DNA from: a virus
Length of the DNA: 24,849 nt
IMG/VR virus record: IMGVR_UViG_3300035698_012504
Location: 250,694 to 275,542 of that record
Strand: one strand, 5' to 3'
Shown in pieces: positions 225 through 16,899 of this stretch. The position numbers and the translations under genes are program-made. Below the pieces are notes generated by a model. It was given only the letters and a program-made list of their open reading frames with translations, did not search any database and was not told the origin of the DNA. The stretch's first letter is position 1, and each line of letters begins with the position of its first letter.

Positions 225-1298
225 TTATACTATTAAGAAATCGACTACCTTTTCTTTAGTTTCCTCGTTAGATAACATTCCTTCAAATACTTGTCTACAT
301 ATATCGGCATCAAATGCGGCATCATGTAAATTTTCTTGATTGAATTTAACATTATAATAATGAGCTGCCTCTAATAAGGTTGGTTTTTTATATTTAAAAT
401 TAGGGTGGAATTTATTAAGTGGTAATCTCATAACACTTGTATTGGTTCCACATGTACAAAATGAATATGTCCAATGCATCTTAGAGAACCTTCTATCAAA
501 CGTAGAGTTATGTGCTACAAAATGTTTTATACCTTTGCAATATTTTTCTATAGATGTTAAATCATTTCTATAAAATTCGGGATATGTTGCATCTCCTCTA
601 AATTCTGTAATGGTTTTATGAGTTAATCCATTTACAGCTACTGCTCTTGGATCATAACATCCTGACTCAGAATAGTAATATCTAATGTATGGTTCTACGT
701 CATCACAATCAACTACTTCCATCTTATCAAGATCTACAATTGCTCGTATAGCGCAGACAGATAATACATGATCTTTCTTCTCACTCACTCCTGTGGTCTC
801 GAAGTCTATAAATATAAGTGGAATAGATCCCCACGTCTTTATTTTATTAGCTTCTTCTTTAGCATAAGTATCACAGAGTTCGTTATACTTATTTCCTTTA
901 TGAGCCTCAACGTATTCTGCTAATACATTAAATTTCTTGAGGATCTCATTTATTTCTTTCCATAGATTTACATGAGCAATTTCTAATTTTTTACTATTCA
1001 TCCAACCATTACATGACCACTTCTGCAACCAACTATTTATAGAATTACAAACATATTTTGAGTCACTAAAAATCTTTACATTTGTTCCAGGTTCAAAGTT
1101 ATTATTAATATGTACTAATGAACTATAAGCAGCCATTACTTCCATTGCGCTATTTGTAGTATTCTCTTTATTACCTTTTAGTACTTCTAATTCTTTTCCA
1201 TCTTCTAAAACAACTGCTGCCCATCCTCCAGGAAATGTTCCTTTCTGATTATTACCTAAACATGAACCGTCAGTATATACAACTATCTCCTTACTCAT
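225..1298 (-). CDS. Fusion protein: N-terminal RNase HI domain plus C-terminal DnaQ/RNase-T-like DEDDh 3'-5' exonuclease
   Basis: The N-terminus matches RNase HI closely. '[23 protein letters not shown]' aligns with E. coli RnhA '[20 protein letters not shown]'. '[11 protein letters not shown]', '[18 protein letters not shown]' and '[18 protein letters not shown]' align with 'TTNNRMELMAA', 'STDSQYV..GITQWIHNW' and 'GHAGHPENERCDELARAA'. The C-terminus carries the exonuclease motifs: Exo I 'FIDFETTG', Exo II 'FVAHNSTFD' and Exo III '[14 protein letters not shown]' with the DEDDh histidine. Its stop overlaps the next gene by 8 nt. Confidence 0.85.
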   Translation of the reverse strand: [357 protein letters not shown]

Positions 1299-1779
1299 TG
1301 GAGCCCTTTCTAATCTTCGTAATTATCTCAGTAGTAGATATTCCTTCTACTCCAGAAAATAATAATATCTTACCACCATAATTTTCAACAATTTTTCTCT
1401 CTGTTTGAACTACTGTATCAATAGTATAATCGCCACCCTTCACATAATAATTTGGTTTCAATCCTCTTAGAACTTCGTCGAAATCTTTACCGTCCCAAAG
1501 AAGAATATAATCTACAAATTCTAATGATGAAAGAACTAGTGCTCTATCTTCCTGGTTCATTATCGGTCTACCAGGACCTTTATTTTTTACAACAGATTCA
1601 TCAGTATTGAGGCCGACTATAAGTACATCACCAGCGTTGGCTGCTCTCCTAAGGTACTTAATATGACCCGCATGCATTATATCAAAACATCCATTTGTCC
1701 AGACAGTAGTTAAATTTTTACATTTACATTCTTGAGAAATTATTTTCAAAGCATCAAATGATAAAGTCTTCAGTCTCAT
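1291..1779 (-). CDS. Cytidylyl/adenylyltransferase of the HIGH-motif family (RfaE domain II / HldE C-terminal type sugar-phosphate nucleotidyltransferase)
   Basis: The sequence 'TNGCFDIMHAGHIKYL' is the (T/H)xGH nucleotidyltransferase signature. It matches the GCFD(L/I)LHxGH motif of heptose-1-phosphate adenylyltransferase and glycerol-3-P cytidylyltransferase. The size (162 aa) fits this class, and the gene is translationally coupled to the one downstream. Confidence 0.7.
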   Translation of the reverse strand: MRLKTLSFDALKIISQECKCKNLTTVWTNGCFDIMHAGHIKYLRRAANAGDVLIVGLNTDESVVKNKGPGRPIMNQEDRALVLSSLEFVDYILLWDGKDFDEVLRGLKPNYYVKGGDYTIDTVVQTERKIVENYGGKILLFSGVEGISTTEIITKIRKGSNE

Positions 1780-1780
1780 T

Positions 1781-2050
1781 CTAATCCTCTCTAAATTGAG
1801 GTGGTCCAGTTCCTAGTGTCCGACCACTAATTTTATCTGCTATAATCGGAACCCTTGCAGTCATTCCATAATCATTGGGTTCTACTGGAGTACTAGTATT
1901 AATTTTATTGGTTACCTTCGTTGCAAAAGTTCCAAACACTTTCGATGTTTTTAAGCTTCCACAATTAGGGCATTTTTCTTTTGTCTTTCCCTTCTGTAAA
2001 GACTCCCAAGTATTGGTACACTCTTTACATTCAAAGGTAAATAATGGCAT
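1781..2050 (-). CDS. FmdB-family zinc-ribbon protein
   Basis: The N-terminus 'FECKECTNTWESLQK...KCPNCGS' fits the FmdB pattern CxxC...CPxCG. It is followed by a low-complexity tail. Confidence 0.6.
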   Translation of the reverse strand: MPLFTFECKECTNTWESLQKGKTKEKCPNCGSLKTSKVFGTFATKVTNKINTSTPVEPNDYGMTARVPIIADKISGRTLGTGPPQFRED

Positions 2051-2053
2051 AAT

Positions 2054-2446
2054 CTACTCCTTACTATTATAAACATCAGGGTCAAGATCTCTATTCCTAA
2101 GAATAGAAAAAATTATTTTCGGTATTGATGTGAGTTCCAGTTTAGGTACAAATATATCGACTACTTCAAACCCTTCTACATCCATATTAGGAACATCGTT
2201 ACCACTCATTAAAATTCCTACAGTAGTTGGGCTAAATCTTTTAATCTCCCTAATAAAATCTACACCATTCATTCCAGGCATTCTAAAATCTGAAATTACA
2301 ATATCATAAAACGGATGTAGAAGTGTTTCCCTTGGATCAGTTTTTACTTCTATTTCAATATTCTTCATGCTGCTCTCTAAGATATCAACAGCCAAATCTC
2401 TGATCATTTCATCATCGTCTATTAACAGAATCACTATTTTTTCCAT
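2054..2446 (-). CDS. Stand-alone response-regulator receiver domain (CheY-like), with no output domain
   Basis: It has 'ILLIDDDEMIRD' (the acidic pair), 'DIVISDFRMPGMNG' (the phospho-acceptor Asp), 'VGILMSGN' (the conserved Ser/Thr) and 'FVPKL' (the conserved Lys). The protein is 130 aa. A GGAG ribosome-binding site lies upstream at 2453-2458, read on the minus strand. Confidence 0.8.
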   Translation of the reverse strand: MEKIVILLIDDDEMIRDLAVDILESSMKNIEIEVKTDPRETLLHPFYDIVISDFRMPGMNGVDFIREIKRFSPTTVGILMSGNDVPNMDVEGFEVVDIFVPKLELTSIPKIIFSILRNRDLDPDVYNSKE

Positions 2447-2467: not shown

Positions 2468-2493
2468 AGAAAAAAAAGGCATTGTGCCTTTTA
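2468..2493 (-). terminator. Rho-independent terminator between the Ro60 gene and the receiver gene
   Basis: Read on the minus strand the sequence is 'AAGGCA-caa-TGCCTT' followed by 7-8 T residues. The stem is 6 bp with a 3-nt loop. It starts immediately at the TAA stop of the Ro60 gene. Because it is flanked by an A-run upstream and a T-run downstream, it could act in both directions. Confidence 0.6.
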
Positions 2494-4110
2494 CGATTGC
2501 TGTGTTTCTATTTGGTTAGAAATGTCGATCATTTTTCTTGCGAACATCAGAACGCTGTGGCTCCAACCTCCAAGAATAAATGTTCTTCTGTAATACTCTG
2601 GAATTATTGTATCCTGATACCCAGCTGTCTGGACTAGGAATACATTAATATTAGGATTCACTTTTGTTCTATATCTATTTACAAGTTTGGGGACATCTAT
2701 ATATTGACCTGAGTTCGGGAATATGAAATCAGAGTAGGACGATTTATCTGATCCATACAATCCACCATGACCAGCTTGCATATCGGAATACACAAACAAG
2801 TTATCATAATGAATTTCCTTCTGAGTTATTTCATCTAAGGCCAACCAGATGCCATGCTCAGTACCGTGACCTATGCTCACGCCAATCTTATTAACTTCTT
2901 TTAGTTGATCAAATACAGAACTTCTTTTTCTTACATCATGGTATTTTAATCTATCCCCAAATACACCAATGACTCCTTCATCGGAAATCATTCCGGTAAG
3001 TATACCCATCATGTTTCCAATCTCCGCAACTGTTACTGATGAGTATTCTCCCGGTCCTGAGTCATAAGCACTACCAGAGTTATCGGTGAGTATTAGAGAT
3101 TTACCTGGAAGCTGAGGAAGCTCAGGCATTGATTTCATTAGACTATCTTCAAGTGCATCTAATATCTTAGCAGAACCAGTTGGATGTGCATTCTTTACTG
3201 CCATATATGCTGTCCAGTATCTAAATGGTAATAACATTCCACGTTCAGCAGATTTAGTCATCTTATCAACAATTAGATCCTGATCCACATCAGCAGTAAT
3301 TAAATTTCTAAGATTTTTAACTATTGCAAAGTGTCCCATAACGCCTAGACACTTATCCCAAGACTCACCTTTGGATCTTAATGCTTCCCAAGTTTCGTCA
3401 TTGAGTTTAAGTTCACCGCCTACTAAAGCACGGATATCATCGTTCCATTGAAAGTCAATCATATTAATAACATCAACAGTTTTGACTTCTCTTGATTCCA
3501 TTCTATATTTAGCAAGTTCATATTTCTTAGCTATTAGAAATCTATCTGCCCAAGATCTCTTAAGACTATTGGGTACAGGTTTTCCAAATGCTTTTAACTG
3601 ATATGCTAATTGAGTAGCTGGCTCGTCCATTCTCCTGAGAATTGAAGGAGCATACTTTCTTATTAGGCCAGTGCCTTTTACTTTTAAATGATTTGCAGCT
3701 CTTACCATTATTACTTGAGGAGTAACTCTTATCTTGTCTTCATTTCTAAGTGCAGCTGCAATATAAAGAGTTCCTTCTGGATCGAATGCTAATGCTTCAT
3801 CAATTGCTCGTTCCATCAATTCAGTTGGCTTAAGACTTCTCCAATCATATTTATCTATTGCATCTAAACTTTCTCTTAAATATTTTATTTGGGTGTCTGA
3901 TAATGTGGATGATTTTCTTGCTTCATCAAAACTTTTCTTTTTTCCAGAACCAGAGGAAGTGTAATACTTCGGTTCTCCAAAGAAACATGACGCAGCCATT
4001 GCTCTTAATCTTACTAGTGGAGTAATGTCAAAACTTGTTCCAGCCATAAAATTTTTGTGGGAATCTTTTCTCACTGCCGTCGACTTGGTCTTGTTAATCG
4101 TTGCCATCAA
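2491..4110 (-). CDS. rsr: Ro60/Rsr orthologue: TROVE domain plus von Willebrand A domain
   Basis: The length (539 aa) is close to human Ro60 (538 aa) and Deinococcus Rsr. 'RAMAASCFFGEPKYYTS' matches Ro60 'RFLCFGSEGGTYYI'. The vWA MIDAS motif 'LILTDNSGSA' lies near residue 335, matching Ro60 'LLAVDVSASM' near residue 375. The later vWA segments 'IGHGTEHG' and 'VFLVQTAG' correspond to 'PAGGTDCS' and 'VFIVFTDNET'. The start codon is TTG or ATG at 4110 or 4107, with an AAAGGA ribosome-binding site. Confidence 0.8.
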   Translation of the reverse strand: MMATINKTKSTAVRKDSHKNFMAGTSFDITPLVRLRAMAASCFFGEPKYYTSSGSGKKKSFDEARKSSTLSDTQIKYLRESLDAIDKYDWRSLKPTELMERAIDEALAFDPEGTLYIAAALRNEDKIRVTPQVIMVRAANHLKVKGTGLIRKYAPSILRRMDEPATQLAYQLKAFGKPVPNSLKRSWADRFLIAKKYELAKYRMESREVKTVDVINMIDFQWNDDIRALVGGELKLNDETWEALRSKGESWDKCLGVMGHFAIVKNLRNLITADVDQDLIVDKMTKSAERGMLLPFRYWTAYMAVKNAHPTGSAKILDALEDSLMKSMPELPQLPGKSLILTDNSGSAYDSGPGEYSSVTVAEIGNMMGILTGMISDEGVIGVFGDRLKYHDVRKRSSVFDQLKEVNKIGVSIGHGTEHGIWLALDEITQKEIHYDNLFVYSDMQAGHGGLYGSDKSSYSDFIFPNSGQYIDVPKLVNRYRTKVNPNINVFLVQTAGYQDTIIPEYYRRTFILGGWSHSVLMFARKMIDISNQIETQQS

Positions 4111-4565
4111 ACTATCCTTTCACGTCACTTCGGATCCACGGACCCGAACTTTAAAAATGGGGAGAATATCGCAAGGGCGATTTTTTCGCTTTTGATCCTT
4201 ATTCAAATGAAGTAACCCTTACATTCACTACCCCGAAAAATATATAAATAATATAAATTTAAGAAAAAACAGGAAAAGCTCGATCTGGTGTTGGTCTTCG
4301 CTGGCGCTCACTAGCCGATGGCTAGCAGCGTTCCAGCTCCATGAAGTAACCAAATCAATCACTACCTGTAAAAATCAACGCGAGATAAATAGCGACAGAG
4401 TATATGTTTCATTTTAAAGAAGTAACTCTATCTTTCACTACTCGCTAAAAACATTGGGAAAAAATCAACTAGGTGTTTGTTTCATTTAAAGGTGAAGTAA
4501 CCCAGTCATTCACTACCCAAAAAAAGATAAATCATCGTTCTCACTATTTAATATATATAGTATAT
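4111..4565. ncRNA. 455-bp non-coding locus with four direct repeats and a GC-rich hairpin; candidate structured RNA or RNAs, possibly Y-RNA-like, with strand unresolved
   Basis: No ORF of 60 aa or more is present. Four copies of the motif GAAGTAAC-N(6-8)-TCACTAC(C)-N(3-5)-AAAAA begin at 4209, 4343, 4419 and 4494. A roughly 60% GC imperfect hairpin sits at 4300-4337 in otherwise AT-rich DNA. The region lies directly upstream of the Ro60/TROVE gene. Read on the minus strand each repeat is TTTTT..GGTAGTGAAT..GGTTACTTCA. Confidence 0.4.
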
Positions 4566-5867
4566 CTAAACCTGGTAAACCCATTCATCATCTTCGAAAA
4601 TATTTTTTGTATCTATTATAATATCTGAGTATTCTTTTATAATACTATAATCCACATTATCATGATCAACTGCAATTATTACAGCATCAGATCGTTTACA
4701 TATTGTCTTGAGATCTTCTGATTCAAAACTATAATGTTTATCTACATAAGGATCATGATAAGTAATGTTAGCCCTTCTGAAAAGCAACTGTTCCAATATA
4801 GCAGTGCCGGTAGAGTTTCTAACGTCTCCCACATTCTTTTTGTAAGCCAATCCAATAATAGCAATGTTAGCTCCTTTCACAGGTTTGTCCGCAGAATCTA
4901 AAATCCATTTAATCTTGTCTATTAAAATATCTAATGATTTTTTATTGACGCCTGTACATGCGTCTATGATGGGGGTATCGACCCCATGTTTATTCGATTC
5001 ATATTTAAAATAATATGGATCTACTCCTATACATTCTCCGCCTATAGATGCAGTTGGATAGAATGGAGAAAATCCAAATGGTTTTGTACTTGCCAATTCT
5101 ATCACTTCTTTTAAACTAATTTCCATTTGATCGCAGAATTGTTTGACTTCATTCATAAAAGATATGTTTACAAATCTATACATATTTTCTAATAGCTTTG
5201 TTAGTTCTGCTACATGAGTTCCTGAAGCTTCTACTACTTCATCTACAATATTTAAATATAGTGCTTTTGCAATAGCAGTCGAAACTGGATCAACTCCCCC
5301 AACAATCTTTGGAGTATTTTCTAAAGTATATAATTTATTTCCTGGGTCTACTCGTTCAGGACTAAATGCAACATATCCTTCGAATCCTCTAGATCTTGTT
5401 GGGTTTAACTTGTCATCTTTAAAACGCCAGAAGTTTTTGTTTGTAAACCCAGGATACACTGTACTTTCTAATACAATTAAAAAATCAGACTTCCCATAAC
5501 TTACAATGTTATTATGAATAGTGTCAATCAATATTTCTAAGTTCTTTACTTCTGGTTTATTATTAATGGTTGGGGTTGGAACACATATGATTATACAATC
5601 ACAATCTACTAAGATTTTTTTCGGAGGCTTTTCCCAACATGTAAATAATTCCACACCGTGATTTAAAATATCTAGTTCTTCATCACTTATATAACTTATA
5701 TCACACTTACCCGATTTAAGTTTTTTAATCTTTCTTTCATCTACATCAAATCCCCTGACTCTGAATCCTGCCTTTGCGAATTTAAGGGCCAACGGCAAAC
5801 CTACGTAGCCAAGTCCAATTATACCAATTTTAGCTTTCTTGGTTTCTATTTTTTCTAATAATTCCAT
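4566..5867 (-). CDS. Nucleotide-sugar dehydrogenase (UDP-glucose/GDP-mannose dehydrogenase family, WbpA/WecC-like UDP-N-acetyl-hexosamine dehydrogenase)
   Basis: It has an N-terminal Rossmann motif 'KIGIIGLGYVGLPLA'. The catalytic-cysteine motif 'IGGECIGVDPYYF' matches the 'GGHCIPVDPYY' of the WbpA/WecC branch. The C-terminal domain contains 'IIGLAYKKNVGDVRNS'. The protein is 433 aa. Confidence 0.85.
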   Translation of the reverse strand: MELLEKIETKKAKIGIIGLGYVGLPLALKFAKAGFRVRGFDVDERKIKKLKSGKCDISYISDEELDILNHGVELFTCWEKPPKKILVDCDCIIICVPTPTINNKPEVKNLEILIDTIHNNIVSYGKSDFLIVLESTVYPGFTNKNFWRFKDDKLNPTRSRGFEGYVAFSPERVDPGNKLYTLENTPKIVGGVDPVSTAIAKALYLNIVDEVVEASGTHVAELTKLLENMYRFVNISFMNEVKQFCDQMEISLKEVIELASTKPFGFSPFYPTASIGGECIGVDPYYFKYESNKHGVDTPIIDACTGVNKKSLDILIDKIKWILDSADKPVKGANIAIIGLAYKKNVGDVRNSTGTAILEQLLFRRANITYHDPYVDKHYSFESEDLKTICKRSDAVIIAVDHDNVDYSIIKEYSDIIIDTKNIFEDDEWVYQV

Positions 5868-6243: not shown

Positions 6244-7710
6244 TTATGCACCAGTATCGGAATCTGTAATGGTTAGTGCAGCCAATCCTTCAGGTCTTAT
6301 TACCTTAACCGCATAACGACTTAGGATTGTAAGTGATGGATTGTTACCAAGAGGATAAGGAATTAAGAGTGCTGGTACGTAAGGGGCATACACGCAAACC
6401 GCTTTCATCATTTCTGGGCTTCTGTGTTTCATAATTACTGTACCCTGAGGAACAATACTAGAAACAAGAATCTTCCATTTACCTGAAGATACTGTAGCTG
6501 AACGGTATCCGACATCTCCACCGGCAACACTATCGCCAACATATTCGAAGCCGTTAAGGGATTCAAATACTGCTGCATCAAGTGGGTTACATGCTAATGT
6601 ATTAGCAGGACCGATAAGAGAGGTGTTATACACCTGTGCGGAAAGCTTATTCAGTGTTGGAATAATATTTTCATACCATGCCTTACGACCCCATGTGAAT
6701 CCAGTTGGAGGATTCAGATCAAATGAGTCAGTATGGCTAGATGGGTTGTTGGAACTATTAGCAGTAATAAGCGTACTAATTAGTTGGTTATCAATGTCAA
6801 GAGCAATCTGCTCACCTATGATATTTACAAGCTCACTTTGAAGCTTAATATCATAAAGAGCCTGAATGTCTTGTTCCATATTCACTGTCCATTCTGCAGA
6901 GATTCGTCTGTCTACGACTTTGAATCTTATCTTTTCAACGTCGAACTTGACAGTCGGGTTAATTGTGTTTTCTTCTAGAGACGCATATCCCTGGAAGCCT
7001 ATTTCAGCTACTTCGCCTGTCGCTGAACTCCAGGTCAGTAGACCGTTTAAGTAATCAACATGACCACTTACGGTATCTGGACCTGCATTTGTGGTAACGT
7101 CAAAAGAGAAATTACCGTCGACATCGGCTTGCCAATCAACGGCAACGTATCCACCAGTTTGATCATAAATACCGGTGATTTTGAAATCTTTTTCAAGGTG
7201 TGAGTCAGTGCTATCCAGTGAGACCTCAGCTAGCACATCGTGATTTTGACCCTCAGTTGCTGTAGCAGCTACGCTGATACCAATAGAAGGACCACGAGAG
7301 ATATCTGTGGAGGTTGAAGGGAATGCATGATCATAGCCACTATCAACGTGACGTTTGAATGAAGGTCTTATAAATCCTTTGATTACATCGGGCTTATCAA
7401 TAGGCATTACATTAACTAATTCTTTCGCGACTAGTTTCGGATAGAATACGCGAAGTATAGGTAGTGTCATTGTCTCATATGGATTCAGTTGGAACATGCT
7501 GTTTTCCATCAGGTTTAGACGAGTATTCTCGGCTAATTGACTGAAGTCATCAGCTTGGTCCGTAGGTAGACCTTCGGCTAGGTTCTTTGCATAGTACTTA
7601 AAGCTCTCTGGGCTTGCAAGCATCTGACGGAAACCTTGAGGCGAACGTACGTCTAGACCAGTGTTGCGTTTTGTAGCATTATATGTTTCTTGTAGTAAAT
7701 GTTGCATCAT
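6244..7710 (-). CDS. Major capsid protein, T4 gp23-like
   Basis: 'VCVYAPYVPAL' matches T4 gp23 'GIYYAPYVALT'. 'AEWTVNMEQDIQALYDIKLQSELVNIIGEQIALDIDNQLI' matches gp23 'AAYSIELAQDLRAVHGMDADAELSGILATEIMLEINREVV'. The C-terminal 'VKVIRPEG' matches 'RRVYVKGI'. The protein is 488 aa. Confidence 0.8.
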   Translation of the reverse strand: MMQHLLQETYNATKRNTGLDVRSPQGFRQMLASPESFKYYAKNLAEGLPTDQADDFSQLAENTRLNLMENSMFQLNPYETMTLPILRVFYPKLVAKELVNVMPIDKPDVIKGFIRPSFKRHVDSGYDHAFPSTSTDISRGPSIGISVAATATEGQNHDVLAEVSLDSTDSHLEKDFKITGIYDQTGGYVAVDWQADVDGNFSFDVTTNAGPDTVSGHVDYLNGLLTWSSATGEVAEIGFQGYASLEENTINPTVKFDVEKIRFKVVDRRISAEWTVNMEQDIQALYDIKLQSELVNIIGEQIALDIDNQLISTLITANSSNNPSSHTDSFDLNPPTGFTWGRKAWYENIIPTLNKLSAQVYNTSLIGPANTLACNPLDAAVFESLNGFEYVGDSVAGGDVGYRSATVSSGKWKILVSSIVPQGTVIMKHRSPEMMKAVCVYAPYVPALLIPYPLGNNPSLTILSRYAVKVIRPEGLAALTITDSDTGA

Positions 7711-15943: not shown

Positions 15944-16639
15944 TTATAAACTATACTTATTTTTTAAATCTTTCATTCGTGTCTCTACTAGTTTATCATA
16001 CTGATTTGGAATCATGCACACGCCATTTTTAAGGCACACTAACCCACCCTTTTCGGAAACACATTCCATTAATCCAACAGATTCATGAATTGTTCTTGTA
16101 ACTGTTTCAGTTATTTTAATCATTCTAGCTGAGTCATGACTTGGATAACTTACGGAGTCCCAAGTTACTACATGTAAAGGATGTTGAACTTCATATACAA
16201 CATCACTACCTTCATTTATTTGTTTTACATCTCCCATTCCACGGAAACTAAATCCGACAGGAACGCCATCTTCGGCAAGATTTTTTAAGATGTAACCATT
16301 AGGAGTTCTTAATGTTTCTATAGTCGCCATTAATTTATTTGAACTCCAACCAGTCTCTAAGATTCTATGAGAACAGTCTTTATATAATACTGTTACTTGT
16401 CTAACTGGGTTCTGATCTATTGGGTGATCTAGCTCTCCAATAAAAGATCCTTCTTGTACTCTCTTCTTAATAGAGTTCAGACCTTCATCCAATAAAGCTC
16501 TACTATACTTTCTTTTATTTCTATTTATCTCATCACACGTTTGAAGGATGCACTCCATTCTAACTCTACCATTTTTATCGGTAGATTTTAGTTTGGTTGG
16601 GACAGATACTACGCTTGGTGATTCTGCGATTATAAACAT
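15944..16639 (-). CDS. Prohead core protease, T4 gp21-like (peptidase U9)
   Basis: 'EINRNKRKYSRALLDEG...GELDHP' matches T4 gp21 'VVNRNKRLYPKRILEKA...GELNHP'. 'GVPVGFSFRGMG' matches 'GWIPGVSSRGLG', the catalytic Ser region. 'VVTWDSVSYPSHDSA' matches 'VDAVWGPSAPDAWV'. The protein is 231 aa. Confidence 0.8.
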   Translation of the reverse strand: MFIIAESPSVVSVPTKLKSTDKNGRVRMECILQTCDEINRNKRKYSRALLDEGLNSIKKRVQEGSFIGELDHPIDQNPVRQVTVLYKDCSHRILETGWSSNKLMATIETLRTPNGYILKNLAEDGVPVGFSFRGMGDVKQINEGSDVVYEVQHPLHVVTWDSVSYPSHDSARMIKITETVTRTIHESVGLMECVSEKGGLVCLKNGVCMIPNQYDKLVETRMKDLKNKYSL

Positions 16640-16658
16640 ATTGAGTTACTCCACTTAT

Positions 16659-16886
16659 TTATTTTCCAACGGGGGCACCATGAAATGGCAAGCCCTCGGG
16701 CTCTCTTCTTGCTTTTTTAACTACTGAGGTTGTTTGAGTTGGAGCCTTCTTCTTTTTCTTTAGTGCATTTTTTATTCTAGCTTTTATGGTAGCCGCTTTT
16801 GATGTAGGCGCACCATGCATACCCGCGCGAACATTAGTAACTGCCTTAGACGCTACTTTTGCTATAAAGCGTTCAGATACATACAT
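16659..16886 (-). CDS. Small, highly basic Lys/Ala-rich protein that resembles a T4 internal protein; paralogue 1
   Basis: A 75-aa protein whose N-terminus 'MYVSERFIAKV' is shared with the adjacent 82-aa paralogue. About 25% of residues are Lys or Arg. It sits between the portal and prohead protease genes, as the T4 prohead-core and internal-protein genes do. Confidence 0.5.
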   Translation of the reverse strand: MYVSERFIAKVASKAVTNVRAGMHGAPTSKAATIKARIKNALKKKKKAPTQTTSVVKKARREPEGLPFHGAPVGK

Positions 16887-16899
16887 ATTATTATACCTC

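Follow-up and report, generated by a model that had tools for sequence, protein, structure and literature searches.

Tandem structured RNA units upstream of a Ro60-like gene in an uncultured T4-like phage and their probable kinship with bacterial Y-like RNAs

The intergenic array and its fold

The 24,849-nucleotide stretch of viral DNA analyzed here (positions 250,694 to 275,542 of IMG/VR record IMGVR_UViG_3300035698_012504; hereafter, the window) belongs to an uncultured T4-like phage that encodes a Gp23-type major capsid protein at 6244–7710. Essentially all genes of the window are on the minus strand, among them a gene for a TROVE-domain, Ro60-like protein of 538 amino acids (2491–4107). 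Between the ATG of this gene (4107) and the stop of the gene upstream of it (4566) lies a gap of 455 bp. An earlier note on this DNA had called this gap its only long non-coding stretch, and no other non-coding stretch of the window is as long, the second measuring ~260 bp. We consider it highly likely that the gap holds four small structured RNA genes of ~67–103 nt, arranged in tandem on the TROVE strand and immediately upstream of TROVE.

The TROVE protein is the presumed partner of these RNAs. The longest version of its open reading frame starts with a TTG at 4110, and the likely start is the ATG at 4107, before which AAAGGA is found. The protein matches PHROG 850, annotated as ‘RNA-binding protein’ (E 3.8e-38), and is 39% identical to gp540 of Bacillus phage G. 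The sole solved structure that it matched in a sequence search is the Ro60 homologue of Thermus phage phiLo (PDB 9kop/9l5y; E 5.6e-11). The Pfam TROVE model gave 18.5 bits, which is under the Pfam cut-off.

A repeat finder returned a single four-copy family, at 4201, 4335, 4411 and 4486, with 68–75% identity over 40 nt. The pattern GAAGTAAC-N8-TCACTAC matches exactly at 4209, 4343, 4419 and 4494, the positions at which the earlier note had placed four repeats, and the spacings it reported (134, 76 and 75) were also obtained with the repeat finder. The inner spacer, previously given as 6–8 nt, is exactly 8 nt in all four copies. When up to three mismatches were allowed, no further match to the pattern was present in the whole 24.8 kb, with 0.69 expected. 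On the gene strand, the motif reads GUAGUGA-N8-GUUACUUC. Being only 68–75% identical in their best-conserved 40 nt, the four copies are diverged paralogues and not recent duplicates. This divergence, together with the uneven spacing and the base pairing of the ‘spacers’ with the repeat described below, bears out the earlier view that the repeats are not an array of clustered regularly interspaced short palindromic repeats (CRISPR).

Folding of each unit by itself, a check that had been proposed for these repeats, gave one common architecture in all four minimum free energy (MFE) structures: a closing helix (P1), an internal loop, a second helix (P2) and an apical region. P1 consists of 4–5 bp formed by the 5′ and 3′ ends. 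The internal loop is asymmetric, and in it a 5′ UAGUGA(A) faces a U-rich, UUCUC-like 3′ strand. P2 comprises 8–10 bp, in which the N8 segment of the motif and its flanks pair with a segment further downstream. The apical region opens with an invariant UUACUUC and is otherwise variable between units, with short loops in units R1, R3 and R4 and a plain hairpin in unit R2. Thus, the 35-nt repeat is just the conserved 5′ module of the RNA genes, the apical loops and 3′ strands of which make up the supposed spacers; the real unit is the whole RNA gene of ~67–103 nt. The weak GUGAA…UUCA hairpin that the earlier note drew within each repeat is contradicted by the covarying P2, which leaves GUAGUGA in the internal loop and UUACUUC at the start of the apical region. 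We also tried reading UAGUGA-N9-UUAC as a tRNA D arm, or half of a permuted tRNA, and dropped this because the N8 segment covaries with the downstream strand.

All four units are on the minus strand. Unit R4, the first in transcription order (4453–4521, ~67 nt), has its P1 at 4516–4520/4454–4458 and its P2 at 4508–4500/4474–4466; GUAGUGA occupies 4516–4510, UUACUUC 4499–4493, and the 3′ loop is U6. Unit R3 (4379–4446, ~66 nt) pairs 4441–4445 with 4380–4384 in P1 and 4432–4425 with 4401–4394 in P2, with UAUUUAU as its 3′ loop. Unit R2 is the longest (4268–4370, ~101 nt). Its P1 lies at 4365–4369/4269–4273 and its P2 at 4358–4349/4289–4280, where 10 of 10 positions are paired, two of them as G-U; its apical part contains an additional GC-rich hairpin, GCUGG..CUAGCC-AUC-GGCUAG..CCAGC, and the unit reaches an MFE of −42.9 kcal/mol with the same architecture as the others. 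Unit R1, the last and the nearest to TROVE (4157–4236, ~76 nt), forms P1 from 4231–4234/4159–4162 and P2 from 4223–4215/4178–4170, and its 3′ loop, UAUUCU(C), agrees with the UUCUC of the family described below.

Both helices vary in sequence among the four units and yet remain complementary. The P1 sequences are UUGGG/CCCAA, GCGAG/CUCGC, ACAGG/CCUGU and GGGG/CCCC. In P2, 8–10 of 10 positions are paired per unit, and several of these pairs are G-U and therefore valid on the minus strand only. The fold of the entire 471-nt intergenic transcript retained all four modules and added a leader hairpin, at −123.2 kcal/mol (z −3.1, minus strand); the opposite strand of the same region reached −96.9 kcal/mol (z −2.2). 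Units R4, R3 and R2 are spaced 6–8 nt apart, and a run of at least five U follows each unit. A plus-strand ‘terminator’ at 4168–4181 was discarded, as it is the complement of the P2 and apical region of unit R1.

A covarying RNA family and its linkage to TROVE genes

In order to find relatives of the units, we scanned IMG/VR with an exact pattern containing 15 specified motif bases, which listed at least 118 loci. At the size of this collection, chance matches of about the listed number might be expected. Despite this expectation, most intergenic loci among the matches listed show the full architecture, which can be written as P1-GUAGUGA-P2-UUACUUC, an apical region 15–150 nt long, P2′, a stretch of a few nt with UUCUC at its end, and P1′. 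Other searches were less informative: blastn of the gap region against 50,697 phage records gave no match, and a TROVE peptide-pattern search of IMG/VR yielded nothing that could be confirmed, so that the RNA motif scan was far more productive.

Two covariance models were then built. Because plain MAFFT alignments misplace the 3′ strands, a gapless, trimmed seed was used and sequences were re-aligned to the model. Model R1 was made from 18 trimmed sequences, none of them from the window, and with E≤0.001 as the limit it gave 78 matches from 66 sources. It recovers unit R3 with 35.7 bits (E 5e-6), unit R4 with 34.6 bits and unit R1 with 30.8 bits. Model R2, made from the 78 matches of model R1, detects all four units of the window, on the minus strand only, and has no further match there at E≤1. 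Its scores for units R4 (55.1 bits, E 1.9e-11), R1 (54.5 bits) and R3 (52.6 bits) are those of sequences within its own training alignment; unit R2, which is in no training alignment, scores 39.8 bits (E 1.5e-7).

Covariation supports the fold. Standard pairs make up 92.7% of cells in the 78-sequence alignment, a percentage inflated both by the choice of seed sequences for their pairing and by the fitting of the alignment to the model, and double-sided changes occur in 15 of 15 pairs. The covariation score across the 78 sequences is 0.87, compared with 0.20 for shuffled alignments and 0.10–0.17 when the pairing partners were slid. Neither seed selection nor model fitting accounts for how diverse the compensated pairs are. 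The UUAC that opens the apical region is invariant, being present in 4 of 4 window units and in 78 of 78 aligned relatives.

Two to five units in tandem are a common arrangement in the family, and some of its members are in phages that can be cultured. Bacteroides phage crAss001 (NC_049977, complement; locus L120) carries three unannotated members, at locus positions 3855–3936, 3949–4024 and 4428–4571 (51, 33 and 26 bits), which lie in a 900-nt gap just downstream of its early TROVE gene, gp96. In Bacillus phage G (NC_023719, L119), five or six tandem units at 1697–2374 and 220–375 lie upstream of gp540, a TROVE gene, in a 1-kb gap for which the record holds no annotation. In these units GAAGCGG or GAUGCGG replaces GUAGUGA, while ACAGUUACUUC and AUCUC are kept. 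Y-like RNAs had previously been reported for phage G (PMC12135203). Gordonia phage Rabbitrun has weaker model R2 matches beside its Ro gene.

Some relatives depart from the compact form of the window units. Permuted tRNA-like inserts are present at L109 3713–3978, L078 635–770 and L091 5254–5385. Their order (T arm, acceptor 3′ strand, sometimes an encoded CCA, a linker, acceptor 5′ strand, D arm) is the layout of YrlA, a bacterial Y-RNA-like RNA. A minimal unit often lies directly beside such an insert-bearing member, as do YrlB and YrlA in Salmonella. One locus, L118 (5678–6309 and 6994–7233), combines ROOL (321 bits) and raiA (116 bits) RNAs and a large tRNA array with three family members and a TROVE gene. 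The closest homologue of the window TROVE protein that we found (49.6% identity) is encoded on a 171,663-bp contig of a metagenome-assembled genome labelled ‘Chloroflexota’ (PBMB01000012.1; L217, 5525–7304), and there, too, a family RNA lies directly upstream of the TROVE homologue.

The family is linked to TROVE genes. Among the 118 motif-fetched viral loci in the matches listed, 48 encode a homologue of the window TROVE protein within the few kb examined; across phage records overall, a TROVE homologue was found in 94 of 50,697. Within those TROVE loci every family RNA match (65 of 65) is on the TROVE strand, 52 of them upstream of the gene and 13 downstream, and the distance to TROVE is typically a few hundred nt. 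A motif scan of GTDB genomes, in which chance matches were expected to dominate as the search space is far larger than that of IMG/VR, found TROVE beside the motif in 11 of 120 loci, with every motif copy there on the TROVE strand. ARAGORN detected no tRNA or tmRNA in the window; thus, proximity to a tRNA array cannot explain the linkage at this locus.

Relation to YrlA and minimal Y-like RNAs

YrlA RNAs are defined by a GNCGAAN0–1G motif near the 5′ end, which is a putative Ro60 contact, by a YUAY that opens the V loop, and by T, acceptor-like and D arms, and their genes share the strand of Ro60 and lie no more than 4 kb from it (PMC4201824). The window units resemble them in several respects. 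At 4157–4521 on the minus strand, they are close to the TROVE ATG (4107, minus strand), well within ~4 kb; their 5′ and 3′ ends form a closing stem; and a purine-rich …GAA(G) near the 5′ end stands, as in YrlA, ~9 nt ahead of the YUAY (invariably UUAC in these units) at which the apical domain starts. In the family at large, insert-bearing GUAGUGA members match the Rfam YrlA model (RF02553) over its full length (1–114 of 114) with 40.8 and 37.6 bits (E 1e-5 and 1e-4), and the Rabbitrun RNA beside the Ro gene, which carries GGUUACUUC, matches the model with 31.5 bits; all three scores are below the Rfam gathering threshold of 69 bits. No Rfam family other than YrlA detected the architecture in the searches made here. 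In our judgement, the tandem units very probably belong to a widespread, mostly phage-borne family that forms a divergent branch of the YrlA/YrlB bacterial Y-RNA-like RNAs.

A number of observations weigh against this assignment. The window itself, searched with Rfam both at the gathering threshold and at E≤10, gave noise only, with no Y_RNA, YrlA, Vault or tRNA match, although Y_RNA or YrlA hits had been anticipated in the earlier note. A gathering-threshold search of 12 family loci returned tRNA, tmRNA, ROOL and raiA only, and a permissive search of a typical family member returned noise only. All four units carry GUAGUGAA where YrlA has GNCGAAN0–1G, or CGAA, and none has a tRNA-like domain. 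Besides the inflated pairing percentage, the three units in the training set of model R2 limit what its high scores can say. Part of the linkage to TROVE could be indirect, because the family and many phage TROVE genes both sit in tRNA arrays. Conservation beside rsr, the gene for the Ro60-like protein, was found at many TROVE loci but does not extend to HGTV-1, Vibrio phage pv27 and phage SRB7757, which have TROVE/rsr and in which model R2 did not find the family. Finally, transcription of the array in this uncultured phage, its processing into four RNAs, binding by TROVE and any downstream effect are steps that we infer from the sequence.

For lack of a tRNA-like domain, and with UGAA in place of CGAA, the window RNAs are not YrlA by the letter. 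They also differ from YrlA in the prominence of the family’s conserved 3′ UUCUC and of its extended GUUACUUC signature. The sequence at the place of the YrlA motif varies among relatives, reading GAAGCGG or GAUGCGG in phage G and GAUGCGAAG in Rabbitrun, and the varied 5′ motif across the window, phage G and Rabbitrun suggests a degenerate homologue of the YrlA motif.

The best counterparts of the window RNAs appear to be the minimal Y-like RNAs, namely Salmonella YrlB and the Yrl1 and Yrl2 of phage phiLo. The two phiLo RNAs have a minimal stem-bulge-stem form, their genes are upstream of the phage Ro60 gene, and the Ro60 protein binds them with nM affinity; it recognises CGAA in the bulge, and a C-to-U change in Yrl2 lowers affinity only ~3-fold (PMC12135203). 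Binding of the phiLo RNAs to Ro60 and to PNPase has been demonstrated (PMC12135203). Similar to these RNAs, the window units have a short stem, an internal bulge and a second stem, with paired ends and no tRNA module, as seen in the MFE folds and in the covariation. As in phiLo, several copies lie directly upstream of a phage Ro60 gene, with …GAA in the bulge. The window differs from phiLo in its bulge, UAGUGAA, with UGAA for CGAA, and in having four copies rather than two, and from both YrlB and the phiLo RNAs in the family-specific UUACUUC and UUCUC. Taken together, the folds, the covariation, the linkage to TROVE and the YrlA matches back the earlier proposal of a Y-RNA-like Ro60 partner locus read on the gene strand.

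Other explanations of the array must be weighed against this one. The four structures might be cis-acting elements of the TROVE mRNA leader, such as autoregulatory Ro60 sites, attenuators or stabilisers, rather than RNAs acting in trans. Their position in the TROVE 5′ region on the same strand fits such a role, as do the 52 of 65 family matches that are upstream of TROVE, the tight packing of R4, R3 and R2, which leaves no space for promoters of their own, and the extra hairpin that adjoins the ribosome-binding site. However, the other 13 matches lie downstream of the gene, as in crAss001, and many family members are found at distances of 1–9 kb from TROVE or within tRNA arrays. The tRNA-like domain of relatives, with its encoded CCA, is typical of processed stable RNAs, and each window unit is followed by a U-run. 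Known Y RNAs, moreover, act in trans despite being co-transcribed with rsr. On this evidence we regard a cis-acting role as unlikely.

Still less probable, in our estimate, is that the RNAs serve phage tRNA biology, as processing signals of tRNA arrays or as decoys for anticodon nucleases of the host or for tRNA-modifying enzymes, with only an indirect link to TROVE. Many members do lie in tRNA arrays right after tRNA 3′ ends, some have permuted tRNA-like modules, and L118 joins family members with ROOL and raiA RNAs. Yet the window has four copies directly against TROVE, no tRNA gene and no tRNA-like module in any copy, and the complete strand agreement with TROVE at a typical distance of a few hundred nt is difficult to reconcile with an incidental association. 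Least probable of all, and very improbable in absolute terms, is that the repeats act as DNA, whether as transcription-factor operators or as promoters specific to the phage. A conserved bipartite motif that is repeated at four spaced sites in the intergenic region ahead of a gene invites that reading, and a receiver-domain protein is encoded nearby, but this protein has no DNA-binding domain and the motif is found nowhere else in the window. Furthermore, covariation that preserves RNA helices, with G-U pairs that fit one strand only, is seen both between the conserved blocks and in the sequence that follows them, and the linkage to the TROVE strand is strict.

We therefore favor the reading of the array as Y-like partner RNAs of the phage Ro60-like protein. 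The array probably yields one precursor, because R4, R3 and R2 are almost contiguous and the sole promoter-like site is upstream of R4. This site, TTTACC-18-TATATT (4550–4579, minus strand), is ~25 nt upstream of R4; it is a weak, sigma-70-like match from a consensus scan and a candidate start of a transcript that might span the array and perhaps the TROVE gene too. The T4-type late promoter, TATAAATA, was considered and rejected: the window shows no enrichment of it, and the gap contains it on the wrong strand only. A single precursor, possibly running into the TROVE gene, would then be resolved by processing or by termination at the U-runs. The phage Ro60-like ring would bind the P1/internal-loop/P2 module, with UGAA substituting for the CGAA that phiLo Ro60 recognises in the bulge. 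The variable apical domains of the four paralogues might gate the ring, or link it with host factors, for example PNPase, and the outcome could be that degradation of structured RNA is redirected or restrained during infection.

The leader hairpin that folding of the 471-nt transcript predicts (UUCGGGUCC/GGAUCCGAA, 8–9 bp; 4129–4148, minus strand) sits between unit R1 and the TROVE ribosome-binding site, in the TROVE 5′ leader, and may be a processing, stability or autoregulatory element. Its arms carry GGGUCCG and GAUCCGAAG, reminiscent of the Ro60 motifs GGUCCGA (metazoan) and CGAA (bacterial).

To our knowledge, TROVE proteins are present in many phages and RNA partners have been described for few, namely actinophages, phage G, CcrColossus and phiLo. 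The locus is an extension of the known Ro60/Y-RNA system rather than a system of a new kind. What it adds is a compact, easily recognised family by which candidate RNA partners of Ro60 can be spotted in a wide variety of phages, and the culturable members in crAss001 and Bacillus phage G make binding, processing and host RNA decay testable. In many family members the tRNA-like domain of YrlA is dispensable, UGAA may be tolerated in place of the supposed CGAA recognition motif, and arrays of several diverged paralogues are common.

Metazoan Y RNAs, vault RNAs and neighbouring genes

The window units share with metazoan Y RNAs (RF00019) a small size, a stem/internal loop/stem fold and, presumptively, a TROVE/Ro60 partner, and hY1 and hY4 happen to contain GGUAGUG. 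In contrast to metazoan Y RNAs, they have no lower stem with GGUCCGA and a bulged C. The earlier note had rested its comparison on a complementary pair, GGUAGUGA/UCACUACC, as in the lower stems of vertebrate Y RNAs. This argument fails because the transcript has no UCACUAC strand: GGUAGUGAG is base-paired in hY1, whereas GUAGUGA stands alone in the window units, in a loop and with no complementary strand. A sequence profile of the family gave no match to hY1, hY3, hY4 or hY5.

The sequence GUUACUUC led us, through a text search, to the human vault RNAs; vault RNAs, too, have a TROVE protein as partner, namely TEP1, to which they bind. The first ~28 nt of vault RNAs (RF00006) follow the same plan as the phage family, in the same register: a closing stem, a loop of 5–6 nt, a 9-nt helix strand ending in G(G), and then UUACUUCG. 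In addition, GGUUACUUCG is at an equal distance from the 5′ end, CUCU (YUCU) comes just before the 3′ closing strand, and in some phage relatives the 3′ half of the apical part contains a GGUUCGA box that resembles a T arm. On human vtRNA1-1, vtRNA1-2 and vtRNA1-3 (sequences from PMC10087102), the family profile scored 7–9 bits, above all 1000 dinucleotide shuffles of each, in a comparison that is post hoc because it was made after the shared 8-mer had been noticed. The Rfam Vault model matched neither the window (E≤10) nor L019 or other relatives, and in the literature searched we did not find vault RNA and YrlA mentioned together. Vault RNAs and the phage family could each derive independently from tRNA-like sequence. 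We may speculate that GUAGUGA-P2-GGUUACUUC…UUCUC is an ancient TROVE-recognition cassette, and that vault and prokaryotic Y-like RNAs share a tRNA-derived ancestor, although we hold this to be doubtful. If true, it would mean that the partner RNA travelled with the TROVE domain, and it would link two RNAs of eukaryotic ribonucleoproteins, both of them long enigmatic, to a prokaryotic or viral ancestor.

The second-longest non-coding gap of the window, of ~260 bp, is at 16640–16899. Neither covariance model has a match inside it; the nearest scores, at 16175–16214 and 16418–16442 (9–12 bits), are noise. Downstream of TROVE, the genes at 225–2446 (minus strand) encode a response regulator consisting of a receiver domain only, a zinc-ribbon protein, a cytidylyltransferase-like protein and an RNase H/DEDD-exonuclease fusion; none is a usual rsr companion (RtcB or RtcA, for instance). 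The gene immediately preceding the RNA array (4566–5867, minus strand) encodes a UDP-glucose/GDP-mannose dehydrogenase and is probably an auxiliary metabolic or DNA/surface-modification gene.

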